A stretch of DNA of 63,580 bases, the filler included. It is 3 parts of 3 records of this genome, joined end to end, with 100 filler letters (N's around TTAATTAATTAA, not from the genome) between each part and the next. Parts side by side here need not be neighbours in the genome. Positions count along the whole stretch, not along the records: positions 1 to 19,782 come from SRR20825019_1435; 2 more parts are not named here. One strand, 5' to 3'. Position numbers and translations under genes: made by a program. The notes under the pieces are model-generated. The model was given only the letters and a program-made list of their open reading frames with translations. It searched no databases and was not told the DNA's origin. Shown here one piece after another: positions 3,111-47,035 of this stretch (position 1 is the first letter of the stretch; the number at the start of each line of letters is the position of its first letter).

Positions 3111-3950
3111 GGCTGGCGCAGGGGCTTACAACGAAGACACCTGAACACTACCAAGAGCAAGAAAAAGCGATTCGGTGATGGAAAGACAACTGTTCTCAGA
3201 GAAGGGGATATTTGTGGGTCCCCCGAGCCGACCCAACGAAGCCAAGGTGCCCGGGTAGCTGTGGTCCGTACCAGCCCGGACGGGGCCCATCTAGAGTCTT
3301 CCACCGCCATCACCGGCAACATGTTCAGTCCGTAACCTGATGCAGGCGCAGTGACGTGACCGGCGGAGGGGCCGGCCGCGCCGGCCAGCCCGTCCCCACG
3401 GCGGCCGTGCCCGGCGGACCCCGGCCACCGCTTCACCCTGGTCGGGCGGCACATCGCCCTGGCCACGACGGCACCTAGCAACCACTCACCACGCCGGACG
3501 CGGCTCTGTGAGTGATGAAAGTGACGTGTTGCAGCTGACGATGGAACATAGCGATTTCGTTATGTCTAGATTTAAGAAATATGTCTCGATATACCCAATT
3601 AATTTGGTTGGACAGTAGTATCCGACTACTAACTATTTTAAAAGTGATGAAAATCGTCATGCACCAAACTCGGCGGGGCGCGAGTGCCGTGTGTGAGCGG
3701 GGATCGGACCGCACTCTGACGGATGCTCGGCTCAGGCCTCTCCCGGCGTCAGGCCGCGGCCCTGGTGGGCCCGCTCGCGCGCCGGCACCTATCGGGGCAC
3801 CACCAGCCCGGCCAGTCACTCGCCATCCCGGCGGAGGATCGTCAATTCCTCTTGATTTCGACACTGGAGTCGGGTTTGGGATGAGGATCGCCGGGCATCA
3901 GTAAACCGAGCTTAGCCCATGAACGAGACCTCGAAGTGACCTTGATACGG

Positions 3951-6135
3951 CTAGAGGCGATGCAACGAATGAGGTCTCTGAGTCTTGGGGCGGCCTGACT
4001 GTTTCGTGGCGGCTCGAGTGACGCGGGACCCCGAAGATAAGCCCCTCGCTGTTCCTCCAGACACGGGTCTCTGCCGAGAATCAAAAGTGGTATTGGATCC
4101 GAACGTCACCGAATTATACAGTCCGCCGACTGGTTCACCCATCTCAATCATTTCCTTGAGGGATCTAGTCTTCTGTTTCCTCCGCTCCGCCTTCTCACGC
4201 CAGTACAGGAGCTCATTCTTGAATTCCTCTTCCAGCGCCCGGTTAGTCATGCGCAACTTCTCGGCCTCGGCTGCGAAGGAGTCACGATCTCCCCTGAGTT
4301 GTCTGACCTCGTTTACATCGACTTGGCCTGCTTTGGCCTGTCGAAGCTGCGACGTAACCGCTTCCATCGACCGCTTCCATTCTTGCTTGGTATACTCATG
4401 GGCCTCCTCCAAAGAGCGCACATGATCAGCTAGGCGCTTGTTCTCCTGCTCGAGACTCGACACCATCCCATTCCCTTGGTGTCGGATTTGCATCAACTGC
4501 TCCAGATTCGACGCGCCCACCTCTTCCATATCTTTCATGGCGGCCTCGAATGCCTGCCTTTCTTGCTGCCGTTCTGCGGCATTCTGGCTTTGCTCATCCT
4601 CGAGTCTCTCAATGCGGCGAGACATTTCCATCTTCTCGCGGCTCCAATCCTCTCGTTCAACCAAGAGTGATCTAATCTTAGTCAGTGACTTCTCCAGGTC
4701 TGCTGCAAGCCTCTGTGACATCTGCTCTGCCAGCTCCAGTCTCCGACCCTCGTCACTTCTATCAGATTCTGGGCCAGCCTTAGATTTGGAGAGTTCGTCC
4801 TCAAGCTCGGCACAGCGGGTGGAGAGAGACCTTATCGTTCGGCGGGCGGATTCGACCTCTTTGTTCTTCTCGACGACCACCAAAGAACCATCCCCGCTCA
4901 GAACCCTCGCCTTCATATCCTCAAGCTCTGCGCGCATACCTTCCTCTCGCTTTGCACTCATAGCCCTCTCATTTTCCAATGCCTTGCGGAGTTCTGAGGC
5001 CTCCTTTCGTGCCTGCTCGGCAACCTCGTGTGCAAGCGCGGCATCGTCATACGATGAGACATCAGTACGCTCTGCCATAGAGAGCTTTTTCCGTAAGTCC
5101 GATATCCTCTCATTGTAATTTCCCCGTTCTCGATCGATTTGCGCATTCTTCTCGGACATCATATCTGCAAACCTCCTCTCTGCTTGAGACATTCGGGATT
5201 CCAGCTGCTCTGCGGCCTTGGATAGACTAGAGGTGAAATCCTCCATTTCTGCCACTTGTCTTGTCTTGTTCTCGAGTTCCTCGGCCATCTTTTGGTGCTC
5301 CTCAATCCAGCTCTGCAATTCCGCGCGGAGATCCGCCTCTCCCTTCCCTGAGAATCAGTGAGCATATATCGTGACTGCAATAACCATCACGCTTACCACT
5401 GATGCGATTAAGCAACGATGTATTTCCCTTTGAAAGCGAGATTCGCCTGGATCGGTACAAATTAGGGACTTGTCATCATGATGCACTACTCCATCCACTC
5501 ACTTCTCCGTCGCTGTCGGCACCCTAGGCGAGGCCACCCCAGTATTGCGCACAGGCGAGAGAGGTGATGATGGTGCAGAAGGAATGCTTCCAACACTGAC
5601 CCGTGGGTCCTGCCCAGGTTGACTAAGGCCACTGGAATTCATCACTGCGAACGCAGTAGCTGTCGATGGAGCCGCTTCGCGAGCCTGAAGCAGGGGAGTG
5701 GTTGACGGCTCTGGCAACAAGTGAGATGTGTTCGGGTTACTTCCTGCGGCACTAGAAAGTGTCATCTTGTCGTGAATATCCGGGTGATCAGCTTCGCTGG
5801 GCGTAACCATAGGCTTGGGACTCATAACCCCAGTCTCCGCCAATGTTAACTGTGCGGGCAAAACAGGGTTGGCCATGGAGACTGCCGAGGGTGATGGGGT
5901 GCCGTGAAGGGCGGGCTGTACAGTCTTCGTGAGCAAGACTTGGGCACGGAGTCCGTGCACTTACCGCGATTGTACTAGCAGGGGCGGACTGTGACACCAA
6001 GTTCGGTGTAGTGGACGGGGTCTCAGTCATACTGGAGCCTCGAGAGCTCCGGGAGCCGCGCTTGCCATCATAGTCCACTACGTAGTTTCGCTTGTGGTCT
6101 TGGATCACCACTTCCGGGGGACGTTTGAACGGCAT
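3951..6135 (-). CDS. Hypothetical protein: Ser/Pro-rich N-terminus plus long coiled coil, multi-exon
   Basis: ORFs 5788-6135, 5499-5960 and 3951-5318 are on the same strand with donor/acceptor signals between them (e.g. GTAAGT near 5964); E/K/R/L heptad-rich 455-aa last exon. Internal exon boundaries not fully resolved. Confidence 0.7.
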
Positions 6136-6595: not shown

Positions 6596-9500
6596 TCAGA
6601 AGCGAACACTGGAGAGGTCTGGACGAGCCCTATTGCACACTTCGCAATAAAACTGCGACTTCGGGTTGAAGAGGCCACAACCTCCACCACTGCCGCTCGC
6701 ATCATCAGCGACACAGACCCACTTATTGGGTGGGCATTCCCGCTGACCGGTCCAACCCAACTCGCAGACTTCACATGTACGTGAGTTGGAGGCGTTGATG
6801 AAGGTGCAATTCATGCACTGCCAGGCGGTTGCCTCCATAGCCCCCTTGTCCACCTCCATTTCCTCGTTAGCTGGAAGTTGCTCGGGAACCTTGAACACCT
6901 TGACGAATTCCTCAAGGCTGAGGCTACCCCGGCCCTCCGCGTCTACCAAACGGATGGCCTCGTAGTAATCACCAGCCGAGAAACCCAGTCGCATTGCTTC
7001 GAAGCAACGCTGAAGCTCACTGTAGCTCAGCTTGCCATCATTATCAGAATCATGCCCGAGGAATTCCGACGCAGGATCTAGTCGCCGCAAGCGAATGCCG
7101 TTTTGAATGGCGTTAATAATCTGTTCGAGCATTGCCTGCTTCCGCAAGAGGTGCCACTCCTCGCGTGGTGTGAAGATCCGCGCCAATGGAGTGTCGCCCC
7201 ACAAATTACGTTGGCGCCGGCGAAGACGCAAAACGTCAGAGAAGAACGCACGGCGATCTTCCAAAGAGGCCAACTTCAGACCGGCCTCTAGATTCTCAAG
7301 CTCGACATCAGTATAGAACATCTCGCAGTTGTAGAAGCGCAAGCATTGCAGCGATGGCGAGACAACAGCAGAAGCGGATGTGTCCTCAGGATAGAATGGC
7401 ATGCTTCGATCCAATGCACGCCCGGACACGGTCCGAATTGCTATACCAGAGTGAAGGACGGCAGGCTGCCTGTTGTGAATCATCCATCGCAATGTTTCCC
7501 CTTCTGAAAGGGACAGCGCGACCATCATCCTCTGCTGCGGCACTGCCAGATCTTGAGCATCCATTGCATCCGTAGGACACAATGCTTCACAAAACAGTTC
7601 GCTATCACGGCTGCTAAGCCACGCCTTGTCGTCACGGGCAAGCTTTTCCTGTGCAGTAGCAAGACACTTCACCGCCGCGTCGTTGGGGGGTATTGGCGTG
7701 TAACCAGGACGGCAGGCACAGAGCGGGTTACTGCAGTCCCCATTCTTACCACAGCCCGCTGTCATTTGCTTGAACAGATGAGCAACCCACCTCTTCAACC
7801 GAGCTTGCCTTTGTGCTGTGGCAATATCCGGTATCCACTCCATGACAAGGCTCACATTCTTTAAACGCCTCTCGCCCAACCCAACCCAGCGAGGACGGAA
7901 GAAATTATCAGTGAGAAGCAAGTGCTCGGGGAAGTTGAGTGGCTTCATGTCCTTGCGAACATGGAACTGGTTGAAGCGATAGAATGGATCATCCCCAAGT
8001 TTGCATGTCGGCAACGTGCGCAATGTGTCTACTGCCCATGGGTTGTGCTGCTCGTCATCACGTGTGAACGCGCTGATCTTCTGCTCCTCTTGCTCCTGCT
8101 CTTCTTCTTGCTCCTCCTCTTGCTCCTGCTCATGCACAACCTCTGAGTTGTAGCCCTTTTGGACAGCCCCTGTCTCGGCTCCGTCGGTGATCTGGCCCAC
8201 CCGCTCGGTCAGCTGAGCAATGACGGCAGCATCCCTCTCGCTGAGCCGATAATCTGAGTGCTTCTCGACCAACTCTTCAATGCGCGACCTGAAGGGGCGC
8301 GGGGTCGGCACGCAGTCTTCCACTGCATGACTCACTGGCTCACGGAACTGCATCACACAACGACGGAGCCACATTTGAGCGTCATTGCTGGAAGTGGCTG
8401 ACGAACCAAAGCGGTGAAGTCGATCCATGGTGCCTAGATCGGCAGCATATCCAAGGGCATGGACCTCATCGGTCAGGGCCCCCAAGCTGCGCTTGCGCCA
8501 AACATTATACAACTCTTGCGTGCTCATCTTAAGGAACTGCAAGCTCTGCATCCTCATGGAGTTCACCAGCAACCACGCCGGCACGTCCAGCTCGTGTCTA
8601 CCAGTGTACTTGTACGTGCTATTACCTGCATGGGTACCAAGCTCCTGCTCAATGCGGTTCTGTACTTCAGGAATGATGAATAGGTGGATATTTTGGCCTC
8701 GTCCAATGCCACGCATCCGGTAGGCACCCTGAGCATAGTCACGGAAGGTCATGTCTTTCCCGATCGTAAGCACGGCAACAGCAGTGGGCGCTTGCTTGAT
8801 GTCCATGCCAGTGGTGTGCACTTGGTCGTAGAAAGTGAATCGCCGGGCAGGACTGATTCCGCATTGACTCAGCTGCATTGCGTTCTTGGTTCCCCGGACT
8901 AAGATCATCTGCCGATCCTGCCGATCAAGATATACGACACCTTCCATCCACTCAGGAAGATGCTCCAACAGGTACCGCGCAACCTCTTCATTGTCCATGT
9001 TGGTAATGAACGCCCCGGTGTCAATCAGAGCGTGAACGGGGGGGTCAGCAGTGGCGATATCATAGAGAAGACTGCGCGCAGTCCAATCGCTCTTAACTGT
9101 TGCCGATACAACCTTGGGGTTCGTCAACACGTGAATAACACGACCATCGCTCCCAGGTTCGTACTCGCAATCCCCTAAATCAATAGGAAGGAGATTGGAT
9201 GGTGTACCAGAGAAGCCGATTCTCTTCCCAAATAGGATGCTGCTCCCGAGCTCATGACCGCAGGCGCTAATCTTGGTCTGTTGGAAGTTCATTGTAGACG
9301 GGAAGATGTGCTGTCTCAGCAGGTAGTGAAGAAGCTGCGGCAGGCTTCGGACCAGCTCATAAAGGCGGATGAACTGTTTCGCATCACTGACCTGGAACAA
9401 TTGCAAAGGTAGGATGCCGGCCGAGCCAGCGGGTTTGTTCTGCTCTTTTGTTGCAAGATCAATCCACTGACGGAACTGGACGCTCGCAGGGCGTTTCTCC

Positions 9501-12500
9501 TTCGGGCCCACCTGCCGGCTGAAGTCATGCTTCAGTTGAGTCACCACTTTCTTCAGATCCGACTTCCTCAGTCCTTCGTAGCGGAACGCCAGCACAGTAA
9601 GCCCAATTAGCACATCAGGATGGGCAAATTCAGAGCTCCGACTCGGGACATCCTTTCCAACAAATGGCACAGCCATGACTAGGCGACTGTAGGGAGTATT
9701 CGGGTCCACAAGCTGGAGGTCAGCAGGGGAGAGGATACCGAAAGACACACGGTCAATCTTGGAAAGGCAATGAGGCAGCAACTCCCTTGTCCACGATGCG
9801 GCCAAATTTAGCAACTTCTTGGCCTCGGGGATGAGCCCGCCCTCCACACTCGAACGGATCGACTCGATATCGTCACCCATGAGGTACTGCTGTAGCACCT
9901 CAGTAGTGGTAGATACACTGCCAGCAAAGTTTCGGCACAGCCACAACAACGTCCATCTGCAGATCCAAACCTTGATGTGCTCGTGGTAGTAATCCGTGTC
10001 CAGCAACACAAGATGAGGATTCTTCTGTAGCTTATGGAGCTCATAGCCTTTGTGAATAGCCTGCTGCAGTCCGTTCAAGATCTCGATGGCCTGACCACCG
10101 CCAAACACGGCCTGGCACGTTGGATCCCATGAGTCGACGGCTTCGCATATTGAACCACGGCTGTGATAAAATATTGCCTCGATGATATGGATGGGAAGAT
10201 TCCAGCGATGACCTGATAAATCAATAGGAACCTTGTGACCGATGGGGAAGTTGAGTTCGCTACGAAGCGGATGCAGCAGCACATCTACCTCGTCCATTAT
10301 AAGAACTCCATCGGTCCACATGTCCAAAATGTGCACAAGGGCATCGGCCATGTCACTACGAGCAATCATAGTGTCCCTCAAGCGCGTGATCTCACGGTTA
10401 TTTCTGTTGGATGTGGAAGGCACAAGATCCGCCATGTCGAGCTGTTCGATGGAGTGGCTAAGCTCCACAAACTTAAGGAAAAGGGATTTGATGGCCTCAG
10501 GCGGGGCACAAATCACGCCACGCTGCAGGGCAGCGCTCCTCATCTTGGCCCGAAGGCGCTGCACCAATTCGGCACTGTCATCAACGCTACGATCAAATTC
10601 GAGAGTATACACTTTCTTGGTAATAATAGATGCAAAGCACCTGCGCAAGATGTTGCGGGACTGCTCAAGAAGTGCACTCGGCATAACCTGCGTGACCAGA
10701 GACTTGCCATCTGCCAAAATCAAAACGAGGAGTGGTCCAACCACAGTGGTTTTCCCGGCGCCCATAATCATCTGCTGGACTCGCGAGTTGCCGTTGCGGA
10801 TGTTGTCCACAAACCACGTGACCATCTCCACCTGTCGCTTGCGCAGCAAAATATTGAAAACATACTCAAACACTAGGAAGCGCGGGTCAAAGTACACCAC
10901 TGTTGCGGTTGTGTCTTTGCGTTGATGCATGAAGAAGCGCCGAACAGCAATGCTTTCCGCTATGTCGGTGCCCATCTGCTTCAGTTTCTCATGAGTAGAT
11001 ATACTCTCGTTGAGTGCGCTAGTGCCAGTAGAGCCAGAAATGCGGCTAGCAGAATTGAGGATTTGTTTCAGGTAGGTGATAAACGTCCGTGTCTTAAAGA
11101 TGGCTTGCCCAGCACAGAAGCTACGATTGGTTCGCAGCATCACAGAAACCACCATCTTCAAAATGTTGTCAGTGCGGCTGATGAATGGATTCGCACGCCG
11201 CACATCCTCGTCGGATCGAGACGACAAAATGGCGGATGACAGGAATTCCATAGAAATTCGAGTGCGACGCCGCGCGAAACGATTCAGCCAGAATTGAATA
11301 TGGCTAAGGTACTGATGGCCTACGACCTCGGGAAGAACGACCGCATTAGCCTCAGTAGTTATGCGTTTGACAGCCTTCTCAACATAACTACTGTCGGCGT
11401 TGTGCACGGCCTCAAGATCTGTCACCAGATTCTCGAGCATCGCAAGTCCCTCGGAGATATCTTGGGCTCGCCCGAAGGCGATCTCCTTTAGAGCTTCTTC
11501 AGAAAAGTGATGCAGCAGGGGCACCGACGTAGAATTGGCCATGTTGGCATATCCTTGAACATCCCCTGCCATGCGATTAAGTAGATCTTGCGACACAACA
11601 GCACCAGCCGCCTCATGCCCATACAGATCGAACGGAAACTCCGAAGACACGGCCTCCTTCTCCTGCGCCACCCACGACACATACTTCTCAAGTCCAATCA
11701 CAGACAGAGGAGCATTGGCATATGCGCCAATATCCGCGCCCTTCAAGGCCAGCTCGGGACAGTCTGCGACAATGTTCATCTCTGTCAGCATCCTTTGATC
11801 GCATGACGTGTCACTAGCCATCAAACGCAGAGCACCGTTGCATCTCTCAGAATAGGGACGTGTAGTCATCGTCACCACTGCGGCCTTATATTCCGCGCGC
11901 ACGTCCATATTTGCTTGCAAAATCCCTTGCATAAGCAACTGCCGCTCTCCACAGTCGAATGATGTTTGGAACTCGAGATCCACCATGTCCATGAAGGCTT
12001 TGACGTTGCTTCCGCGGCCCATTTCATCGTACAGGTTGAGCCCCATGCGCAGCATGGTTCGGTCCTGGTTGTCCTGAGGCAGTTGGGGCCACGGCAATGA
12101 TGGTATTGATAGCATTGACGCAAGAATGACTAACTCACGAGAAACAACGCCTTCCGACTCGCCATCATCGACGGTTTCCTTTCCCCATCGGGCGTGCTTG
12201 AGATGCCAGTATCGGAGGAGCAGATTTGCAAGCGACGACGTGCAATCACGATCACCAAGCATCATCAGAACGCCACCTGTCAGCATCTCGTACATAAACA
12301 GGAAGCCCAGGTGACGATTGGAGCCACTAACTTCATCCATAATCAAGGCATCGGTAAGAACCAGTTCAAGCATAGGGCTGCCTTCCAACACCTGCGGATG
12401 CGGTACTCCTTCTGCCATCGGACGGGCGCCCTTGGGGAGCTTGTAATGTACTCGTGTCACCTTCGTGGCATTATGCTGAACATAGTCGCGACCCAGAGCA

Positions 12501-15500
12501 CAGAGCTTCACCCAAGGCTGGCCACCCCAACGAGGAGAAGGACCCTTTTGCTCAACTGGCGTACCGGCCTTTCCTTTCAAGTACTCAAGACGATTCTTGA
12601 TAAGGGTGGTTCCAGATTTGCAGTTGTGGAGGAGATCGAGCTCTTCCTCATCTGTTAACAAGCAGCTGCTTGACACATGCTGAACACTTGACAAGTAAGC
12701 GTCCATAACCTGATGAGTCTCCCATTTGCATTTAACAGGACTGTAGAGCACTGCCAATGACATCTTAAGTCTACAAGCATGGGCGTCAGGGTGATTATCA
12801 TCGAGTGTTTTCTCGAACTGGTCAAATATCCACTGCTCCTCGGAAGACAGTTCTGTGTCAATACAGCTACTGTCAATCATGCGGAAGGCATCTTCGTATT
12901 GTCTGGACAAGAAACGGAGAAGCACCATGTAAAGCAAAGATCCCAGGGTATTCGGAAGGACAAAGGTCTTGCTCGTATGTACTGGATACAGGTAAGTCCT
13001 TGTTTGCATAACCTCCTGCCATCCTGAAGATCCACGATCGAAAACAAGCTCCCTCGTGAACGGACGCCCCCTGACACGCGGTCGATGGGCATCATGGTTG
13101 GCTACCAAAAGCTGCATCTCATGAGCATGGTTCCCAATAACAAGACTTTGGTCTATTCCCTGAAGCATCGAGTCGAGGAAATCACACCCGACCTCCGCTA
13201 CATCGCTGATGAACCATCCCGGGTGATCCAAGCTATAAAGTTTCACTGTGCCGTCAGGCCCCTTCTGAGGCTGGAACTTGAGCTGGAGCCGGGGCAGCTC
13301 GACAACAGCAATTCTTGCCAAGGATTGCGACCCTTCCATCAAGCACTTCTCCGGGTAGGAAGTTGTCCACACAAGAATGTGAGAAAGATCTTCGATTCGG
13401 GTGAGCGCACGCGCCAAGCGGGATAGCACGCTGTTTTCTGGGGCATCAAGCAAGTTCAAAAGATATAGGTCTCCTGTACGATTCGACTCGCCAATCTTGC
13501 TTTCGGAACGACCAAGTGCAGCAGGTGCGCTCCCAATTTCGCCAGCAGTCTCTCCGGCCTGCAAGGCACCGCCACTTTCAAGAATAGCGATGGATTCGGC
13601 GTTGACTTCATCCACGAGCCATGATTTAGCGAGGTCAACATCGCCTCCAAAGAGGGTGAGAGCATGCTCACAAGCGACACTACTATAGCCTTCCTCCTTC
13701 AAAACGGCCATACGACTGAGAATCTTTTGATGATCTGCCATCAGATTTTCTTGCTGCTGTTTCTTGGGGCTGATAGATTCTGATGCGGATGCCGCCGGAG
13801 CATCTGGCATATCGATATCCATGGGTGCTTCCGGTTCGCTCACAATCGCGGCCATCACCTCGGCCTGATTGGCCTCGTTGAATAGCCACTCCGCTGCTGC
13901 ACCAAGGTTACCTCCCGTCTTGGACAGAGCAAGCTTCGCCGCAGGCATCGCAAAGCCCAACTCCACCAAGTGAAGAACATCCATTTCCTTGATCTCGGCG
14001 ACAGGCGCTGGTGCGACCGGGGCAGGGGCGTCATTGCGAACAAGATTCGATTCACCAATTGTAGATGACACAATATTCGTAAACCCTTGATTCAGTGCAC
14101 GACGGCGAATACTAGCGTTACATGCGTTTGTACCATTTTCTAATACAACTTCAACGAGGTAACTAAACCACTGAGATTCGTTGTTAATGGGGCTTCCACG
14201 AATAATTCCGTCCTCACCCTGCCACATATTGAAGGATTCAAGCAGAGCAGAAGGAATAAGGCCTTGTAGCAGCCTTGGAGGAAGATAATTCTCCAAACCG
14301 CCGAGGTCCTTGTTTCTCCTTGTCACAACCAGTGAAGACTCCTTCACCCGCTTCTTCTTGAAATCACCGGCCGCGTATCTGACAAGCTCCGATAGGGCTA
14401 CGTCGCGTGTCGACAACTTAGGGGGGAGACTGTGAAGAGCTAGGCGCGCATTCGAGGAATAAACCAACGTGCGGTACATACGTCTGCCGTGAGAAACTAG
14501 ATTGTAGACCATGCACACGTTGGGGGTCTTTAGGGCCACAATTTCCTTCCATGTAGCATCTTCTTTGTCGAAGGCATCGCATCCAATTACACGAACAGTT
14601 GTGCAACCTTCGTGATAGACGGTCTCTGGGAGCAGCAAGGGATATGGAATCTTATGGTCGTCATCAATCGGAGGATACATCATATTGATAATTGGGCGAA
14701 TAATATCAATGGCCCATCGCTCCGATCGGTGCTCATGAACTTCGTCATCGTACGGGTCATACTTGCGGTTGTAGCGGACACCATTGAAAATGACGTCATC
14801 ACAGGGAACTTTGTCGGGTTCGCGGCGAGCATTCATGAAGGGATTATTGAATGCCGGCGGTGCTTCAGCAAGTCCTCCAGGACGCGGAGACTCACACACT
14901 GAGCACTGAGATCCCGCCATACCTTGCTGAGAGCAATTGAAGGACGTACATGCTTCACATCGGAAGCACCTGCCATCGGCACCACCGCAAACCAGGCAAA
15001 TGTAGCCGCCGCCACTTTCTGGGTCGGCCGGTTTCGGTGGGTTCGTTGGAGCACCAATACCTTGGTCTGTATTGATAGGCTCGTCCCATTCCATGAGATC
15101 ATAGTCAGTACCTATCACGTGAACCCAGAACCTGTGCTCGTTGCGCTTAACAACACCACAATGCAATGCCTCGCGACCAAATATAGTTTCAAAGTCTGAA
15201 TATTGGGTCATGCTATCCGGTACAGGGCGAAGCTCATCATTCCTCCAAAGAACTTCAGCAGTCTGGGCATCAAAGCGAAGCTCGGCCTTTTTGGCCACAT
15301 ATCGCCCCAACCCTTCCCTGTCCTGACTCTGCTTGGTCCATCCATCACAAGTGAACTCGCCGTTTCGTAACGCAACACGAATGATATTGTCGAGAACACC
15401 GTTAATGGTGGCCATGTCCGATTCTTCAAACCACGACACGATGCCGCGTCGATGCCTTTGCAGCAGATTGAAAAGGCGGAACTCGGGCACATCCGCCGGT

Positions 15501-18500
15501 GGAAGCTTGAAATAAGTCTCAGTGTCGCCCTCCTTATTCTTTCCGTCCTCAACCGGCCGCACACGAATGAGGGTTGGTACACGAATCGTTTCTCGCCCAA
15601 TGTGCAAAAACAGTGGACGGCGCGATCCCGAGCTGGAAAGATACGATTCAAGGGCGTTCTTGCTCAGATGATTTGTGTTGATCCCTTGAGCCTGCAAGAA
15701 ACGAATCAACCGTTCTTCTGCGGATAACAATTCGTCTCCATCCTTGCATGTCATTTCGGACCGCTGCTGGCCAAGCCCAAAGCCGTGCCAATTCCTCACA
15801 TAGGCCAAGCTACCCACCATAGCTGCGACCACATCAGGTGAGAGTTCTGATCGGTCCACGTTTGACCACACCAGCGCCAAATATGAATGTACAACACATG
15901 CAGTAAGAAGATCATCGGTCTTTTCGGCCTCTTCCCTCCAACGTTCTAAAGTTGGAGCGATTCTGGTGTGGATGTAGTCATAAAGCTTCTTTCTGTAATC
16001 TGCGAGAGACGCGACGATTTCTTTCTCACGGAGATTCGCACCAGAGACTCCAAGGTTTGTCACATATACCATATACCCCTCCATATCCACAGCGATCTGA
16101 GCCATGTAAAGGACATATGATGCATTAGGAGAATAAACAGAGCAGTTCGCCAAGTCCTTGATCGAATCCAACACGACAAAGAATGGTTCCATGACTGCAG
16201 CAGGAGAGTGGCTGAGCTCGTTGACTAACAATCCGTGGCGAGTCCCAAGCAAAGCTTGGTCTTCCGAAACAAAACGGGCATCCATCATCTTCTGAATGTT
16301 CGCATCGCGCCGATCAGCCACAGTCTGACGAAGGGGCACCTTCTTGATGACTGTGTTGAGACTTCCCGAAATCCAAGCATTGGGCTCGAAGAGTACAGAG
16401 CGGAGCACTTCCTGTAGCTCTTCACTAAACAGATATGTCGAGCGATCCTGGCCAGCAAAAAAGTCCAACACCAAGGGAATCGCAACGTACGGCACTGTCA
16501 AATACGACAACAACAGCTCAGATTCCTCGGCACTCAGCGTATCACCGAAAGTAGGAAGCTTCTCTAAGTGTAAAATGTCGTCCTCGCTTGGGAGTTCCTT
16601 ACCTACGATCTTCGCAACATTGGCGGGAGAGTTGACCACAGGGCCCTCGCCCCAACTCAGCTCTCGTGTCCCAAAGGCAGTCAATTGTATGTCTGCAGTG
16701 TCCAGGTCAGGACCACGGAAATTCGCAATCTCCCATTGCAGCGTGCGTGTCTCCTCCCATGAAGACCTCGCCCACGAATTACGTTGCCCTGATGAGTCAT
16801 CGAAGCTCAACCTCCAGTATTGGTAGCCCACCTGCTTTCGCTTCCGATAGAGCTCTGCCTCTCGAGTCTCCATGGTAGTTCCAAACTTGAAGAGAGCCGC
16901 CATATCACGCAATAATGCAAATTCTGGCTTCTCCTGGCAGAGCTTAGAGCGTTCCCCAAACATCCACTCCATTAGAGCTTCCATTTCATGTTGTGCCATG
17001 GGTTGATCTTCCGCCATCAGTTGGTACCCACTCTGTTCCATGATACGGCGGAGGAAGACGACTGTAGGAGAGTACTTCTTGATCTCGATCTTATCTGGCA
17101 TCCGGTATTCGAAAATGCGATATTTGCAACCAGATTCTACGGACTCGAGATAAGCCAGCATGGTATCACGCGAAATGGTGTGCTTAGGATTCACTAACTC
17201 CAGCGATTTGCATACTTCCAAGTAGCTGCGCGAGTTCTGGCACACAGTGGTCGACACTGAGTAGCCATTGTCTTCTCTGAGGAGTCCAGGCACCGTCAAG
17301 TTCTCTCCTTGGGTGTGGACAACACGAATCACAGCATCAAACACAGATAGCATACAGCCCATGGTCAAACAGCGCTCCGAGTCGAATGCCCGGCTTGGAT
17401 TATCTACGCTCTGCCACAGATAAGAATATAAGTACGACAACTTGAAAACGCGTTGAAGACAAGTCATCTGAACATCCTTGGCACTGGTGCCGTTAGATAC
17501 AAGTGCGCTACTGTGAATATTGGCAAAACCATTGTGATAAACGCAATTGCCCGGCTCTGTTCCCATAGGACCTGGCATCGGCAGTATCTCAGTGAAAAGG
17601 GTCGTGATCAATGCCACAGCTTCCATGTGTAGAGCCCGCCGCGACGATGTTGAACTCTCCTTTGCACGATTTAGCAATTGTTGGCAAGCCTCATCGCAAC
17701 GAACAAGTGCAGTAATGACCTGCTCAAGTGATGTCACATTCTCCGGGACGGCCAGCATATTCGCGCGCGCCGGAGGGCGCACAGCAGCACCATCACCAGC
17801 ATACTTCTCAACATCATGCTCCTTCAAGAGTTCAAAGGAATGGAAAGGATTCACAGATGTCTCCAGCTGCGCATCAACACCAGGAGGCAGCCCTTGCTGT
17901 TTGTCTTCAGACGGAAGCTTTGCAACTAGCTGATCAATAGTTTCAACGAGCACTTTCACATTGTTCAGTCCTGTTACACCAAGTCTACCGGCCCTTACTT
18001 CCTTTAAAGAGGCAAGGGACAACTGCTCACAACCGTACTTCAGCAGTGATTGGTCCGTACCGGATATCAGAGTAGGCGGCGCTTCTAACCATGGGAAGTT
18101 ATCAGCGTCAATGTCCTTGGAAATCACCTCCGTTCCCTTTAGGGTGATCAACTTGCCATCTGGCCCAAATAGAAGCAAAGTTGGCAGGCTGGAAACTCCA
18201 AAGAACTTCGCAATCATGCTGGTAACATGGAATGGAACAGCAAGCCATGGCATTTTGGCAAGATATTGGCCCCATTCCTCTTCACTCTTCTCTGATCCAA
18301 CAAACAATACCTCAAATTTACCAGAGCCGTGTCTTTCGAGAACATTATTGTAGGCCTTAATTAGACGTGGCGTAAACTTCTGGCACGGACCGCACCAACT
18401 ACCAGAGAAATATAGCCCCACAATATTCGCGCTGCGGAGAGTTGAAAATGGCAAACGAGCCCCATCCTTATTGGTAAGACCGGCATCGAGACCATCTTGT

Positions 18501-19559
18501 CCCACAACGCGACCAATGGCATCACTGGCTTCGTCCAGGGTCGGCATAGAAGACAGAGTGGCGCCCAACTTGACGAGGACGTCCATCTCGTTTTTGCAGT
18601 CTGGGCCAGCCATCATCATCAAGTCCTCGGTAGCACGAAGCAAAGTCTCGCGCCGCAGCAAGAGCGTCATTTGCTTCAACTTAGCATCAGTAAAACCTTG
18701 ACAACGACAAAGATAGAGGATTGATTCTTTCACGGACTGAGCGGCAGAGGTATTGGAGCGCTGAGGTGTGCGGAACGTGGATGCCATATCATCCTTTCCG
18801 GAAAGAACAGCCTGGGGCAACGATCTCCTGACGCCTGGTTTGGAGAGATCCTCCTCGGCCAGCCATGGTAACAGTACATCGTACAACACCTCGACCCTGT
18901 GATATTCAGAAGGCTCTCCCATCCAAAGAGAAAATATCAAAAGCCAAAACGCAGGATCGGAAACGCGGTGTTGTGGAATATTGGGCAACGTCATGCAAGT
19001 CTTGTACTTGATCTTCGAGTCGGTGGCCGTGGATAAGTGATACTCCACGCCACTACCACTGTTGCACACAGTGACAGTAAAGTTCGTATCACGCTCGCGT
19101 CTCAGGATTACAACTGCCCAGCCTTGAGAAGTGAGACCAAGCCAGCCAGCTGGTAAAAGCAAATACTCCTTCTCTCCAAGCCCCGAAATCTTCTGAACCA
19201 CTGCGGCGACGACATCGGCGATTTGAGCCGGCTTTTCGCAGGTAGCCACTGCCTGCGCGATTTCTGCACAACTCTTCAAGAGAGAAACAAGATTTCCTAT
19301 AATTGAAAAGTCTTCTGCAACCATAGATGAGAGAAACTCCTTAAATCCAGTCTCATTAGATTCCGAGGTGCGCCCCACAAGACGACCTGGAATGAAGTTA
19401 GCGCAACTGAAATCCCCAAATTAAGCCCACCATACCTAACAACTGTGAATACGCGTTCAAGCAGTTCGCAACGTGACCTCCTTCGAGTTCGGTTCCACTG
19501 ACGAAAGGATCTGCCAAAGTCCCAACATAGCCATCATGAAACCAATACGGTTTTTCCAT
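6596..19559 (-). CDS. Giant (~4304 aa) multidomain protein: peptidase-like N-terminus, nucleoredoxin-type thioredoxin, Zn fingers, 2 UBA, DUF3638/DUF3645-type SF2-like P-loop ATPase, AZUL-like domain, EF-hands, C-terminal RanBP2-type Zn fingers
   Basis: Exon 1 19436-19559 (MEKPYWFHDG...) plus a 49-nt GT-AG intron 19387-19435 is in frame with the 4260-aa ORF. Motifs: YFSGSWCGPC; LVELGF..A..AL..GNL..A.EWL; QMIMGAGKTTVV; IMDEVD; AVPFVGKDVPSRSSEFAHPDV; FSGT; TTGMDI; QGAYRMR; GCG...C.N..C.C; DSDNDGKLSYSE; WQCMNCTFIN..C..C. Confidence 0.92.
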
Positions 19560-25257: not shown

Positions 25258-28200
25258 TCATGCGACACTTTTCTTTTCGGGGATGGTACCTGGGGTAGTA
25301 GGCCGGGTCCCCCGAGATGACGCCCTTGAGTGTGGCCGTGGGGTTGGTGACCTGGATCCTTCATTACTGGAACTGCTCAGGCGGCGTACCATGCGCCCAG
25401 GTGAGTTAACAAGATTTGTGGGGTCGGCCTGGTCGGCCAGCGGCAGCATGAAGGTAGAGTCCTCGAGATCTTCTTCCTGGACCTGCGCCGTGGCGGTAGA
25501 TGTTGAGCGGGGTGGGTCTTCGTCCGACCCCTCGTCTTTGCCTTCGGACCCATCACCTTTTTTCTTCTTCTTCCTTCCTTTCCTCTTGCCCTTCCCTTTC
25601 TTCTTGGTGGTGGATTCCTCATCATAACCCTTAGGTTTCACTTGTGTCACGGGGCAGATATTCTTTCCGGATATTATGCCACTGTCCAGAGGAATCTCTG
25701 GCCTGGTGTGGGGGGTTCTCTTGGGCGGTTTCCACTTCATCATATTCACAGTCTTTTGTAACGTCAGCCGTCCCCGTGCGATGTCTTCGATGCTCCTCTC
25801 TTCCTTCACCTCTTCCTCTTCCTCGGTAGGTTCCCGAGAGGGCTCAGGCGACGTAAATAGCTTCTTAATAGCGTTGATCAAGGCCTCCTCCGACTCGGTT
25901 TTGATGCCCAGATGCTTGTATGAAAGGTTACTGTACTCTACTGGTGGCGAGTCTTCACGGATCGCGCCCCCGCCGAATCGCCTCACCTGCTCCAGCCTGT
26001 ATCTGGTCGCCTTGTTCCGAATCTTCAAAAGCGTTCGCATTGATGAGACTGTCGTCGGGCGGTCCTCTCCTGGTTCGTTCACAGACACCTCGCTATGCAT
26101 GGCTTCATCATCCCGGGTGAAGAGGGTCATCGCGCGCGTCACAGCCTTTAGCTTATTTCCCTCTGTTTTTGGCCTTGGAGAAAGTGTTGCGGCATTGACG
26201 CTCCAATCGCCTGGTGGCGTGGGAGCCAATGGGACATCAGCAGTCTCGGCCATGGCCTGCTCTACTTGCGTAAGAGGTCGGCGCGGGTGACCGCTATGGG
26301 TCTGCGGCCGAATTTGAGCATTCCTAGAAGTCACTGGGATGCGGGGTCCCCGAGGAGTGGAAGGAGCCCTCGGCATGAGCGCTCGAACTGTGTTTGCCAG
26401 TGTCCATCCTCCTGTCCGCCGGGGGGACGTTGCATTCTCTAACATTGATCCTTTGTGGAACTCCTCACGGTCTCGTAATTTCTGCAAGCTAGCGCGGGCA
26501 TGCTTTGTCAAATCCGGATGTGATTGGGCAGTGTTCTTTTTGACTTTGTGGTCGGGGAACCCAACGTCCACATTTTTGAAGCGCTGGATAGGACCACGCT
26601 CACTCAATTGTTTCTTCTTGCCATCGAAACTCAAGTATGGAAGGAAACCCTTGCCTTTGTCCGATGCGCGGCGAGGGCCGGGCTCACTTTCGCTGATGTC
26701 GTCCTCGGCAATAGCCATATCCACCGGCTGGTCACCAGACCCTGGATATCTTGTGTAAGGAGTGGTTGGTGGCTTCTCCAGGATAAGCTTGCGCCAGTTA
26801 GTGCGAGCAGGTGGTAAATCCTTAATGGAAAATATGGCCTTGCTACTCAAAGCATATTTGGCCCGGAACTCTTTGTATACAGGCCCTTCATGATCTTCTC
26901 CTTGCAGCCAGTTATGCTGAACATGGAGGAGCAGTGGCAATGGTGGTACATTTTGGATGCCGAATCGCCCAAGCCTGATTTCTCTCATGAGACAGGCGGC
27001 CTCTAGGGACTCGCCAGACAGTGACAACAGGATTGGAAGCATCCTGTTCGGGAGCACATAAGACGTCGTGTTTTCTACGTAAGACGTACCGATGTGGTTC
27101 ATAACCGGGCCCATGACATATCGGCTCAACGCCTTGTTCTTAAAACACGACACTAACGTGAATAGATCATCATCGGAGAGAATCTTCAGTGACACAATGC
27201 ATGTCTCAGCCTCAACAGCTATATCTTCATCGTCATCGCCGAGCAAGCGAGTGAGATCCGTCACGAGTTGGTATCCGACCCATTGGAATTTCTGGAGTGC
27301 GTCGATGCCTGCCATTCGAATGGTTGCATTTGGGTGCTTCATCCAATTCAGCAAGATCGGTTCAACAGCATTTCTAAACACCATCCCTGTAGCTTTGACG
27401 ACTATCACGGCCTCCCGCCAGGCTGCCTCGGTATATCTTTTGTTGCCCGGAACTTTGAGCATAAACTTCAGAACGCGGAGGACCTCGAGTGGATCACCGC
27501 CTGACTCCTTCATTGCTCTCATCGAATTAGCAAGAGTCATCACTGCCATTTCTGTCACAGTCATGTCCTTATCATGCTCAGCCACCCACACAAGTGATTT
27601 GAGAACTTGAGCAGTCAGAATCATCTGAGCTTGTAGAGACCTTACAGCCTCCTTTCGAACTAGTACAGATGGATCCCGGCAGCGGTTCACCAGTAAATCC
27701 ACTTCTTCTTTGTGAAGCTTTTCAAGTATCCCATAGTATTTCGTGATTTGCAGTCTGATAGAGTCTCCAGAGGTTTCCATTTGAGCAGCTAGAGCTCTAC
27801 GTACCTCGCCATGCCTGCAAGGACATGGAAGGCATGCATTCACACCCATCATACGGACGGAGAGATCCTTGCTCCATAACCGTGAAACAATTACCTTTGC
27901 TATGTCATCGTGAAGTTCCTGGAAAACAAAAACTATTAGCAGGTGTCAATACCTTCCCCTTCGATGTCATCACCTCATTTTTCCTCACAATGGCAGCTGC
28001 CCTTGCGGACGTCACGTCATCCGCGCTTGCAAGAAGTGACGTGAAGGTATTGGCAACCTGCCTCATATTCTCCTTTCCAAGTGTGGCCCGAGTGCAATCT
28101 GCCAAAAATTCCGACGCTTCTACAGCAGAGCGCCTCACGGAGAGGTTCTGATCCTGCATACGCTGAAGGAGAAGAACCAAGAGCTCGTCATCTAGTGCCC

Positions 28201-31200
28201 TTATTTTCCCTAGAGCCCCAGTCACAGCCCTTCTCACATCAACATTTTGATCTTCTGATGCTATCGCCAAGGCACAATAGAACTCTTCGTGTCTTAAACC
28301 AAGAGTGCCCACCACGTTAATACCAGCGATTCTTATCGAAGGTTGTTTTGCCATGCGAATAGCATTGATCAAGACTGGAATGAGTCCTTCTTCTGCCAGT
28401 ATTACCTCATCCATGAGAACAAGCATGCCCAAGGCAATAGTGTATACAGGAGCCGCGATTTCTTCACCGGGCGGCGTGCGAACTGTCGTGAGTATCCACT
28501 CCAAGGCTGCATATGGAAGCTGTGTTCCTCTGCTGAAGGCATTTTTCAACACTTTTGCAGCAGCATCGACCACATCGGGATCTTCGTCGTGCAATGCTCC
28601 CACGACATCTTGAAGTGTATCGATTTCCCTTTGACATGCGATATCCAATGCCTCTACTGCGGTAGAGCGCGTGGTGGCATGAGAATGCTGAAGAAGTTTT
28701 CTCAACGCCAAGACTGTCACCTCGGAGTTGTACCGAAGGGTATCCAAGGAATGAATGGTGGACGTCCGTACAGCATCTTCCTCATCGAACATCAGCGTTG
28801 TCATCGCAGTGGTGATTTCATCGTCGAATAGTCGGAACTCTTTCACATACAAGACTGCATCCCGCCGCAACTCGCCCTCCTCATGAACCATCCACGACTT
28901 AAGGATGGTCTTTAAACTCTCCTGAGATATACCCCCATTGTTATGCACAATGCTGACAGCCACGTCCCTGACCTTGGCATTCCTGTCTCGAAGACGCCAC
29001 AGCACGGACTGCTCCCTTGTAGGGGTATCTATTATGTCACAATCGTGCATTGCAGTGAGCGCCGCCAACCTGACATCCTGGTCATTATCTTCCATTAGGT
29101 CGCATATCTTATCTCCAGTGTCTACTGTGACGAGGTTCAGATCCTTGCAAATAGAACACGCTCGTGCTCTAACTTCCCAGTGAGAGTTAGCCAGACAGTT
29201 CCCAAGAATCCTTCCAGTGCTGTTCTTCAGATTAAATCTAGTGAGGTATTGGAGGGCTGTGAGAGTCTTAGGAACATCATTTCCTCTCGTCCATTCCGCC
29301 AGGGTTTCTACTAACGTGATGTCTTCGATCTCCCAAGAGGAAATAACCTCTTCGACTAATGATACAATGTCCGGCTCCTTGTCTTCAAGCAGCTTGACAA
29401 CCCCAGAACGGAGAAGTGAGTCGTTTTCTAGCAGGCTTACAACGCTCTTGACAGCACACATACGCCTCGATTTTTCCAAAGATTCGAATGCTCTCATGAT
29501 CCCAGATACAATTTTCTTGTAGTTTTCTAGTCGTAGCATTGGAGGTAACATAGGTAAATTTCGATAGACGAGAGGAGTCTTGGTGGTCATTGCAGTCACA
29601 ATGAAGTTGCACACAGTAGCATTGTCGATACCTTCAAATGAATCAAACTCGGCCGCCTCATACATCGCATCGGACTGCAGATAGTTTAGAGGATGCAATA
29701 ACTGTTCCGATAAGAAATTCCATCTAGTTTTGAAGAGATCTTGCGCAATAGTACTCAGAGGATGCGAGGTTGGAATGGGAGGGTCCCCTGGTGCACGAGG
29801 CCCCGCCGCCAAAGCATCGCGCGCCTTCACCATCTCCTTAAAAGCACGTGTATTCTCTCGACGTCGCATAGCAGCGAGGAGAAGATAGTTCGAAGGGGTG
29901 TGTGTTGAGTCCTTGAATTCCACAGTAGGGTGTGGATTAATCATAATCAAGCGCGCAATTTGCTCAAACACCGGCGGTGAAGCGTACGATAGGGCAGCTA
30001 GGAGCATTTCTTGGTACCAAGGATCGCCTACCTTATCATCCAACATCCTTCGAATAAGAAGCGGCTGCTCTTCTCCCTCGTCCCTTACCGCCCTCTCAAT
30101 TTCACCCACCCAATGCCATCCGGCATAATGTTCCTGCATGACTAGCATGGTAAACTGGAAGACGTCTTGACCATCACCATTTGAGCCGCCAGCCTTAATC
30201 TTGGACATTAACGGAAAGTCACCCTTGTGGATGTGCCTCTCAAGAAAGGCCCAGCACTTTACCCCATTGATATCATCCATAAGTGTAGCAGCTCCTCGAA
30301 TAAATTGGGACGATACAAGACGGGTTCTCTCCGACTGCATGGCGTATGCCAATCTGCATACCACTTCAGCCAAATGTTCCGGATGAACCACCCTTTCCTT
30401 GTCCGCAATGGCTATAATTCTATCTACAATCTTTGTGCCATCGCGCTGATTCTTGGCTCTTACTTTTTCAAACATTTTCAAATATACCCGATAAGAGTGG
30501 TTGCCGTCAGGGCTAGTAAGGGTTTGTGCAAAGAACTCAATGTCATCCTCTTCAACGGCCTCAAGAATCATTGCCCACATTTCCGGATATCTCTTGTTCC
30601 GGTCACGCTCTCGCGCAACAATTTTCTCCTCTACATTTTTTTTGTTGAGATTGCTGACCTTCTGGAGTCTGTCCAAATCTTTCAGAAAATCATGCATGCG
30701 ACCCCAAATTTTAACTTCCTCTTCTACCAGATTTTCCATTGTTTTCTTCAGTGCAAGCCATGAAATGTCTGCGCTCGATGGAAATGATTCTATGTCTCCT
30801 CCGCAATTTCCCCACTCCGCCGCTACGAAGTTTAACATCAGTGGGTGCTCCATCATTTCCCCCAGCGTGTCAAGGGGTTTCTCTTCTCCTAGCATAGCGG
30901 GTAGTTCACTTTTGGTCGAGAATTCTCGCTCAAATACAAAATCCTGTGATGCTTTTGATAGAGGATTCAACAGAAGAACCTCCCATTGCCCAGGGGGGCC
31001 CAGATTGTTGATCATTTTCAATGAACTTGAGGACGATATGATGATTTGCCGACAGTGCCGGAAAAGACCGTTCTGCAACAACTGGAGCAGCGCTTGCTGG
31101 TCCTTTGTAGCATAGTCAAGACCATCCAAAAAGACACATAATCCATCGCCCTCTGCAATCTTGATCAGAATTTTTGAATACTTTCCATCACAACGACCCT

Positions 31201-33137
31201 TTCTATCGTGGAAGAATTCTTCAAGAGAGCTTCGCTTTAGCTGATCTCCACGCAAGCTTTGAACCATGTCCCGAATGTCAAGGAAAATAGGAGTTGCATT
31301 CCGTGGGTCATCGAGGCGATGCTTTATAGCCTCAAGACACATCTTTTGCAGGAGTGCAGACTTTCCATATGCTGACGCACCAAATACTGCTACTTTCTTG
31401 AACACAGTTGGTTGGGTCACAACCGTACTCTCAGAGAGCTCGTCACCAGTGACTTCCACGACTCTTTTCATGCCCTCGGAGGCATATCCAAGATTGGTTA
31501 TATTTGGGAATCGACTCCCTCTTACGTGTCCATCCAAAAAGTTGTCCATGCGCTCTCTCGTGGACAGTAACTTCATCCTTTCATCTTCTCCAACATGTCG
31601 AAACGAAGGCATGATCTGTGTAGCAACATCAAATTTCGAATTTGTAAGCATATTCGTTTGGATTGAAAGGTCTTTTCTCAACGTATTCAAATACATGGTG
31701 ACTTCACTTTCGTCCTTGTCACTAAGTAGCACCTTATTATACATCCATGCATCTAATCTTCGGAGGAGTGACGAGAGCCACTTGCGATGTTCTTCTACGA
31801 GCTGGTGATTAGATCTGTCCTCGAGATCTATTGCCTTATAGCCGTAAAAACGATCCTTAAGATCAGTTTTGATTGCCATAGTTTCGGTCAAAAACTCCTG
31901 GTGTTTCGCATAGTCCTGCTTGTTAGAACTATTATTCCAGGGAATGTTTTCGTTGAACTGCGGAATAAGTGCTGAAAGGTCTGCAACCTCATCCTCCATA
32001 TCTGCAAAGCTCATTTCGTGCTCCTTGAAGAATGGTATCAGTCGAGAGTGCAAAACAGGTGATATCTTGTACAGAGTTTTTTGCACCCAAACGCTGATTT
32101 GTTGAAACTGGTTATGGTACTTGTCCCTTTGCAAAAGGCGCGCTAATGTGACTCTGCGGACAATATTAATGATCTGATGACAATCAAGCCTTCACGGCAA
32201 AACATACTCTAAAGTGCACATTTTCAGCAATCTATTTCCCTCTGATATCCAGTGACACAGCTCTTTCATCGAATCGCGTCGCCTTTTCTCGGGGTTTTCA
32301 TCTGCTATCCGCTGGTCTGTAGAGGCCATGCTGTATGGGCGTGATGTGGAGGATAGGCGCGATGCCGATATGGAGAAGCTCATTTGGGAGCTGGAATTAT
32401 TACTAGGAACAGGATTAGAGTTTCACAACAAACACGCATTCATCTCCTTACTCTAAAACAGAATCCTTCTCGCTCACTTGCTCCTTGTCAGCGTTAAGAA
32501 GGTAGTCTGCATATCAATTTAGTATCAGCAGGTCTAGCGATATCTCATCGTCACCTTCTAATTCTGCCTTCAATTGGGTCATCCTAGAAGTATATAGCTT
32601 ACACTTGGCATGGGAGAATACAATCCTCTTGCCCAGATCAAGAGCATCATCTATTGTCTCATATGTTGCTGATACGTCCTGTTCAAAAGGTGTCTTTTCC
32701 GAACCGATTTCACTCGGCGGTACCGGTGTTGTACCCTCCGGAGTATCAGAAACCGTGACCTTCCTGACCTTCGTGCTACCTGCTTCACTGTTACTCACAC
32801 TCTGCAATCCATTTTCATCACTTCCGCCTGGTTCCTCGCCCTTGACGGAAGGTGCCACCTCCGAGTTCTTTCCTCTAGTTTTAAACGCCATCGCAGTTTC
32901 TTGCATCGCTGCAGTCGTATCAGTGTCAAGCTGTTTCCGTGCACTTTTTATGGACGATTTCTTCGAAGCTCCACTGGCTCCACCCTCCGATGTACTGAAA
33001 GACACTTCCTTTGTAACTCTTTGAGAATTTCTAGAAAGGGTGTTTGCCGCATTTTCCTTGTTCTCTTCAATGGCCGCCAAGCCTGATGGCTCGGAGCATA
33101 CACTAGGTGTGGTCTCAGTAGCTTTATCACCACTCAT
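25258..33137 (-). CDS. Large (~2500 aa) NACHT/STAND NTPase with a long HEAT-repeat array and low-complexity basic/acidic tail
   Basis: Walker A VFGASAYGKS, Walker B LCVFLDGLD, HPLML, FQF...QEHYAG. Many L.D.D..VR..A HEAT units. An intron with its acceptor near 27919 links the 1409-aa and 864-aa ORFs in frame (ELHDDIAKVIVSRLWSKDLSVRMMGV). 5' exons start at ATG 33137. Confidence 0.85.
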
Positions 33138-46009: not shown

Positions 46010-46059
46010 GTTGAAAAGCCAACTCACTTGTAGTGCAACGCGAATGTCACTAATATGTA

Positions 46060-46970: not shown

Positions 46971-47035
46971 GTCTGCTACCTCAAATAAGTCATGTTCGCC
47001 CCCTCCCTCCCAAGACCCACTATTAAAACAAAAGT

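Follow-up and report, generated by a model that had tools for sequence, protein, structure and literature searches.

A 4,304-residue member of the DUF3638/DUF3645 giant-protein family with ubiquitin-related modules, a degenerate protease-like head and a two-lobed SF2-type motor

The window, by which we mean the whole 63,580-nucleotide (nt) stretch of DNA analysed here, carries one very large gene on its minus strand between positions 19559 and 6596. Its two exons give a coding sequence of 12,915 nt, and the locus is a single gene for a soluble protein of 4,304 amino acids (aa). It is virtually certain that this protein is a member of a conserved, collinear thioredoxin-UBA-NZF group within the DUF3638/DUF3645 family of giant proteins. 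From N- to C-terminus it consists of a protease-like head, a thioredoxin with a WCGPC active site, a Cys-rich zinc ribbon, two UBA domains, a DUF3638/DUF3645 motor, an acidic stretch, an AZUL domain, an EF-hand pair and two NZF-type fingers. The earlier note on this DNA, made from the sequence alone, had proposed a protein of about 4300 aa with these modules in this order between 6596 and 19559. Both limits proved exact, the order was correct, and every domain that it named has profile or fold support.

The bulk of the gene is one stop-free main open reading frame (ORF) of 4,260 codons on the minus strand (6596..19378), and the residue numbers of domains given below are positions in this 4,260-aa frame. 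It is contained in exon 2 (6596..19386, minus strand; ~12.8 kb), which ends with the stop codon at 6596-6598. Exon 1 (19436..19559, minus strand; 124 nt) lies upstream in a different frame, starts at the ATG at 19559 and encodes a 41-residue piece plus 1 nt; the upper limit proposed earlier is thus exactly the start codon of this short exon. Its product, MEKPYWFHDGYVGTLADPFVSGTELEGGHV (MEKPYW...), holds a conserved N-terminal motif, KPxW...DPxxxGTELEGGH. The whole piece aligns with residues 4-42 of the homologue P0001 (BLASTP E=8e-10) and also fits the N-terminal consensus of the family. The 49-nt intron between the exons (19387..19435, minus strand), as read from the sequence, has a GT donor (GTATGG), a CTAAC branch-like site and a CAG acceptor, and its removal brings exon 1 into frame with the long ORF. 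We argue for a single transcript because three transcriptome-assembled relatives annotated as 'type:complete' (P0016, P0018 and P0020; 4,218-4,256 aa) cover 99-100% of the query.

How far does this family extend? A word-indexed search returned 153 homologues of 2,343-7,455 aa at E<=0.001, of which 120 were listed. The best full-length match, P0001, is 46% identical, and listed relatives reach at most 46-49%. A Pelomyxa schiedti protein named 'nxn protein' (P0005) shows 44% identity, the Monosiga brevicollis protein MONBRDRAFT_31645 (P0039) 38% over 99%, and proteins of the oomycetes Achlya, Saprolegnia, Pythium, Phytophthora, Bremia and Albugo 34-40% over 98-100%. Further relatives occur in the thraustochytrid Hondaea, Thecamonas, dinoflagellates, Trypanosoma, Leishmania and Bodo. 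Query coverage is 99-100% against P0016, P0021, P0028 and P0039, and all ten relatives scanned have the same domain order. Collinear proteins of ~4,000-5,000 aa span several eukaryotic supergroups. The motor alone is far more widespread: at E<=0.001 a profile built from 30 DNA-derived motor sequences matched 12,612 representative clusters, and at E<=1e-30 it still matched 4,237. The suggestion that the locus might encode an undescribed system does not survive the full-length collinear relatives and the size of this motor superfamily; the gene is one more member of a widespread, catalogued protist family without functional study, and not a new system. A related motor was also seen in one bacterial metagenome-assembled genome. 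There, the product of contig L001 (1-8751) is at least 2,897 aa long, and its DUF3638 motor (E=1.6e-16) is 28% identical to that of the window; genomes sampled from the phylum of L001 are about 1-3 Mb in size.

Sequence searches and the open-access literature yielded no characterised one-to-one match. In the parts of the open-access literature covered, supplements excluded, DUF3638, DUF3645, DUF6606, PF12340 and PF12359 appear in genome lists and in no functional study; for the kinetoplastid relatives, data may exist in genome-wide screens. A 2025 Tetrahymena paper describes the mechanism of the DUF3638-type domain as undefined. In the open-access literature covered, nothing related was found on SecA-like, ubiquitin-linked giant ATPases of eukaryotes. 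Many relatives bear the automatic UniRef name 'ubiquitinyl hydrolase 1', which may stem from a rule of family classification. The main text of a paper on viral-tegument-like deubiquitinases (PMC9741609) mentions no DUF, ATPase, P-loop or thioredoxin and does not explain that name.

The head (18548..19348, minus strand; residues 11-277) has an AnkH/LegA15-like, clan CE-like cysteine-enzyme fold. Pfam finds no match in residues 1-300, and it assigns no peptidase family to the paralogues with intact heads either. The head was modelled with a predicted local distance difference test score (pLDDT) of 87.6, and its model matches protease-like folds. Foldseek, given the model of head and thioredoxin together, returned thioredoxins only, and the head match was found solely by a search that does not lean on Foldseek. 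According to published work on AnkH, its domain is clan-CE-like and places His243 in the motif rGHa, Asp258 in D/NRg and Cys324 in GNCSWANV; His begins one strand, Asp ends the next and Cys precedes a helix (PMC6712400). LegA15 (structure 7EW8) is instead reported to be a GTPase dependent on Cys361 and Gln356 (PMC9757750). The heads of distant paralogues of the window protein show GGHA(I), NxG and QRSGTC, in line with the published AnkH motifs. In the window head, the residues mapped to the His-Asn-Gln-Cys set are G86 (followed by W87), N106, Q206 and S211. Strand 85-96 of the model starts at the G86 site, strand 99-105 ends at the N106 site, and helix 211-226 starts at S211. The clan CE-like fold and both Asn (N106) and Gln (Q206) are retained, and the catalytic His at the strand start and the catalytic Cys, five residues after Gln at the helix start, are absent. 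The region had been called peptidase-like, which holds for its fold; its nearest relatives, however, have a catalytic His and a catalytic Cys that it lacks.

This loss extends to the whole group. A profile search over 121 sequences (the 120 listed homologues and the L001 ORF) found heads in 97, and 24, the bacterial L001 protein included, had none at a domain E<1e-5. Among the 71 heads of the window's group, the window included, the Cys column holds Gly in 33, Ser in 29, Ala in three, other residues in four and a gap in two, and Cys in none; the His column has His in 21 heads, the Asn column Asn in 65 and the Gln column Gln in 36. Because the group lacks the catalytic Cys and mostly lacks the His, its head is most likely, as judged from these alignments, catalytically dead by either published mechanism. 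The head is therefore probably a pseudo-enzyme, which makes the automatic name 'ubiquitinyl hydrolase 1' doubtful. The complete His-Asn-Gln-Cys set occurs in four of the 27 distant paralogues (P0091, P0105, P0112 and P0114), which are the obvious place to look for a head with catalytic activity. Three of these four were scanned; they have UBA, EF-hand or thioredoxin domains, at positions different from those in the window protein.

The motor (8240..10888, minus strand; residues 2831-3713) comprises two RecA-like lobes. DUF3638 (PF12340) matches residues 2831-3069 (E=1e-30; 107 bits against a cut-off of 31), and DUF3645 (PF12359) follows downstream at residues 3231-3261 (E=2e-13; 49.8 bits against 25). 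The motifs GAGKTT (2873), DEVD (3029), GFSGTP (3388), HTTGMD (3521) and YRMRGIG (3553), assigned by eye, are what we take to be the Walker A, DExx, SAT-like, V and VI motifs of superfamily 2 (SF2). Across 30 diverse members, little or no variation is seen in these motifs in either lobe (Walker A, DEVD, SGT, TTGMD and QGxxRxRG). In an AlphaFold2 model of residues 2826-3848, DEVD and GFSGTP are separated by ~330 helical residues that include DUF3645, and lobe 2 is followed by a long helix. The prediction of an SF2-like ATPase is upheld by the motifs in the two lobes and by SF2 fold matches. In a VIA structure comparison the bacterial preprotein translocase ATPase SecA stands ~4 Z units above every helicase, with more residues aligned. 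Because sequence tests, described below, give no specific link to SecA, we call the motor two-lobed and SF2-type and treat its modelled resemblance to SecA as a lead.

The thioredoxin domain (18083..18541, minus strand) is tryparedoxin/nucleoredoxin-like. Thioredoxin_8 of Pfam matches residues 319-409 (E=2e-21), and the fold and the CxxC active site (WCGPC at residues 328-332) are both present; the family profile matches tryparedoxins at E=1.6e-31. In several oomycete relatives the first Cys of the CxxC is gone, with SSAAC or GHAGC, for example, in the columns of window residues 322-336, and two thraustochytrid-type relatives in the same alignment lack the domain. The Cys-rich finger (14879..15013, minus strand; residues 1456-1500) has no Pfam match of its own. 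It aligns to residues 1316-1348 of P0045, which Pfam recognises as Zn_ribbon_RanBP (E=6.9e-6), and relative to that finger it has a 14-residue insertion bearing an extra CxxC; it is thus an expanded zinc ribbon of the RanBP2/NZF type. UBA domain 1 (13859..13975, minus strand; residues 1802-1840) scores E=4.2e-10 for UBA and E=8.7e-12 for UBA_7 when the fragment is searched. UBA-like domain 2 (13601..13702, minus strand; residues 1893-1926) is a second UBA/UBA_7 stretch that also matches EF-Ts_N, a UBA-like fold (E=9.6e-7). On the whole protein UBA scores 30.2 bits against a Pfam cut-off of 22.4, with two stretches on the fragment, and the family profile matches the tandem UBA regions of NUB1, USP5 and USP13.

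Beyond the motor lies an acidic, E/Q-rich run (8078..8137, minus strand; residues 3748-3767), modelled as a helix with pLDDT below 50, at a place where the family consensus keeps an acidic stretch. The AZUL-like zinc-binding domain (7646..7795, minus strand; residues 3862-3911) scores 25.3 bits against a cut-off of 23.8 (E=1.8e-5), and higher in P0001 (42.1 bits) and P0005 (35.2 bits). It occurs in the window and in only three of the 120 listed homologues (P0001, P0005 and, by precomputed Pfam, P0003), and is confined to the closest clade of the window protein. The EF-hand pair (6890..7063, minus strand; residues 4106-4163) is recognised on the fragment by EF-hand_1 (E=3.4e-9; 36 bits against a cut-off of 25.4) and EF-hand_7 (33 bits against 30). 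Judged against the EF-hand loop consensus, loop 1, DSDNDGKLSYSE, is canonical and loop 2, DAEGRGSLSLEE, degenerate at position 5. NZF-type finger 1 (6749..6823, minus strand), WQCMNCTFINASNSRTCEVCELGW, shows by eye the pattern WxCxxCxxxNx6CxxC and has Thr-Phe and the hydrophobic positions that we take to be the rule for ubiquitin-binding NZFs. Finger 2, with the conserved C-terminal tail (...RARPDLSSVRF), occupies 6620..6721 on the minus strand and keeps its Cys pairs, with a Gly/Ser-rich insert between them. Zn_ribbon_RanBP gives two weak stretches within the last 75 residues (E=0.0058; 16.3 bits against a cut-off of 27), and relatives score 24-31 bits; the family profile matches the NZFs of NPL4 (E=6.4e-5), TAB2 and HOIP. 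More than half of the protein, residues ~450-1450, 1500-1780, 1960-2830 and 3920-4100, is conserved without a domain match. For residues 450-1450, fungal DUF6604 clusters appear in the ESM Atlas at 0.88, under the 0.9 level, and are a lead only.

The ORFs around the gene are of ordinary eukaryotic types: glycosyltransferase, alkaline phosphatase, NACHT/HEAT, PX, LRR, CLU and aldo-keto reductase. Two ORFs on the minus strand at 25258-32134, 52 nt apart, encode 1,409 aa with NACHT and HEAT repeats and 864 aa with HEAT repeats, and may be one NACHT-HEAT gene with a short intron. The G+C content is 0.62 at 46001-48000, against ~0.50 in the flanks, and this segment overlaps an aldo-keto reductase ORF (47266-48153). 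Of a 'clustered mitochondria' protein, the ORF at 50923-52068 (minus strand) covers only the CLU domain and the first part of the eIF3_p135 region, and it probably represents a single exon of a larger gene with several exons.

What might a protein of this kind do? Our tentative reading, favoured without strong confidence, is a ubiquitin-guided, ATP-driven remodeller. Ubiquitin chains on a client would be bound by the UBA pair and by as many as three NZF-type fingers. The head, with a ubiquitin/SUMO-protease-like fold and without His and Cys, would probably serve as an extra, non-catalytic binding module, and the two-lobed SF2-type motor would spend ATP on pulling on or remodelling the client or the complex that holds it. 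The thioredoxin CxxC and the one canonical EF-hand loop would supply redox and Ca2+ inputs. AZUL domains are linked to the proteasome, and the AZUL of the window's clade may serve to dock the protein to a partner of the proteasome type. The motor model resembles the polypeptide translocase SecA best, which tips the balance slightly towards a protein substrate and away from nucleic acid. The earlier note had suggested an ATP-driven machine for ubiquitylated substrates, which stands as a reasonable proposal, and had given it redox control and ubiquitin/proteasome-binding modules. Neither the redox nor the proteasome link can be a core feature of the family, because the first Cys of the CxxC is retained in 22 of 31 aligned relatives and AZUL is found in few.

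Besides these two distributions, several results weigh against the remodeller and its leaning towards SecA. Finger 2 of the window has Gly-Leu at the Thr-Phe site of most relatives. The catalytic positions of the head were mapped by motif and topology and not by residue-level superposition, and strongly conserved head sites (the His of YHP, present in 96 of 98 heads, and SEYHRxE..YD) may point to another activity. The motor model is of moderate quality (pLDDT 70.4). SecA_DEAD (PF07517) is not among the 25 listed of 64 weak Pfam families matched by the motor. A search of the PDB with the 30-member motor profile returned no ATPase, only low-complexity matches to the acidic run, and a search with a single motor sequence gave one chance match. 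Aligned with hhalign to a shallow SecA profile of 24 sequences, the motor matches at the Walker motifs only, with a probability of 1.1%. The controls, again at the Walker motifs only, are SNF2 (24 sequences; 5.9%), a PriA-like profile (four sequences; 6.9%) and a profile of other ResIII proteins (four sequences), with all of these profiles at 1.1-6.9%; against one SecA sequence only Walker A aligns (0.1%). As computed from these profiles, the scores do not discriminate among SecA, SNF2, PriA-like and ResIII.

Does the motor act on nucleic acid instead? A ubiquitin-recruited translocase or helicase would turn the same SF2 motor on ubiquitin-marked RNA, DNA or ribonucleoprotein, for example a stalled ribosome or chromatin. 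Most SF2 enzymes act on nucleic acids. In weak Pfam matches, which also tell against a SecA link, 11 of 30 motor members reach ResIII (best E=3.1e-4) and 2 of 30 reach DEAD. Foldseek ranks two Snf2-type proteins highest, DNMT5 at E=2.2e-4 and RapA at E=4.7e-4, with RIG-I/LGP2, DinG and UvrB next. However, Pfam recognises no nucleic-acid-binding domain over all 4,260 residues, the zinc fingers look like ubiquitin-binding NZFs, and the VIA comparison puts SecA above every helicase; a nucleic-acid substrate is accordingly a possibility that we hold to be doubtful. Less probable still, and in our judgement unlikely, is a scaffold or switch, in which the P-loop module would change conformation with bound nucleotide and gather ubiquitin, Ca2+ and redox partners while doing no mechanical work. 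The many binding modules and the large conserved share of the protein without a domain match are consistent with it, but the near-invariant helicase-type motifs of both lobes are as expected of a working motor. The idea that the head is an active deubiquitinase or ubiquitin-like protease, fed by the motor and the binding modules, would agree with its clan-CE-like fold, with the complete His-Asn-Gln-Cys set of the four distant paralogues and with the UniRef name. It is nevertheless very improbable for the window protein: Gly stands at the His site and Ser at the Cys site, the other heads of the group are similarly depleted, no Pfam peptidase family matches the head, and the name is automatic, with no experiment behind it found in the open-access literature.

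The remodeller reading can be carried further, to a proposal that we regard as a long shot. On this view the family might be a polypeptide translocase of ancient eukaryotic origin, directed by ubiquitin and driven by a SecA-like motor; it would act as a 'segregase' in one chain, with no need of p97 or the proteasome ATPases. The head, formerly a catalytic ubiquitin protease, would have become a reader in this lineage, and the heads of AnkH and LegA15 would have descended from such protist proteins by way of amoebal hosts.

What is new here is the AnkH/LegA15-like fold of the degenerate head, the two-lobed SF2-type motor and the restriction of AZUL to the closest clade. A protein of more than 4,000 residues, whose ATP motor is intact and whose ubiquitin-related modules number five or six, has been conserved from choanoflagellates to trypanosomatids and oomycetes. 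The window's gene adds only another member, one with the clade-specific AZUL insertion. The automatic label 'ubiquitinyl hydrolase 1' probably misdescribes the window's group. The family gains concrete questions: does it bind ubiquitin chains, which polymer stimulates the motor, and how do paralogues with intact and degenerate heads differ?

Among named proteins, the closest likenesses are Poli38472_007900 of Pythium oligandrum (P0028), ACHHYP_13291 of Achlya hypogyna (P0021) and the Monosiga and Pelomyxa proteins (P0039 and P0005), at 38-44% identity over 90-100% of the length. The 'conserved hypothetical' 4,900-aa proteins of Trypanosoma brucei (P0075) and Leishmania (P0068) align over 34% and 46% of the query, respectively. 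The window protein and these protist relatives have in common the order head, thioredoxin, (finger/UBA), UBA, DUF3638, DUF3645, EF-hand and NZF, and the end ...RARPDLxxVRF. The window protein differs in the AZUL that it shares with P0001, P0003 and P0005 only, in the extra CxxC of its middle finger and in a last finger without Thr-Phe. Other DUF3638/DUF3645 giants, among them P0091, P0105, P0112, P0114 and L001, resemble it in the motor and in the fold family of the head, and often have UBA, EF-hand and Thioredoxin_8 domains. The first four keep the His-Asn-Gln-Cys set that the window's group has lost and place their accessory domains elsewhere; the head of the bacterial giant is not recognised by the eukaryotic head profile.

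Beyond the family, the window head shares its fold with Legionella AnkH (PDB 6MCA) and LegA15/AnkD (PDB 7EW8) at 10-12% sequence identity. Those proteins have ankyrin repeats and no motor, and their function requires a His and a Cys, both of which are absent from the window head. The sequence signal shared by SecA and the window motor is limited to the Walker motifs, and the window protein is cytosolic and eukaryotic with no known membrane partner, unlike SecA. The RQT/ASCC complex of ribosome quality control is a ubiquitin-guided SF2 machine, made of several subunits with Ski2-like helicases. Its likeness to the window protein would be one of logic: in both, ubiquitin-binding modules would bring an SF2 ATPase to a marked client.

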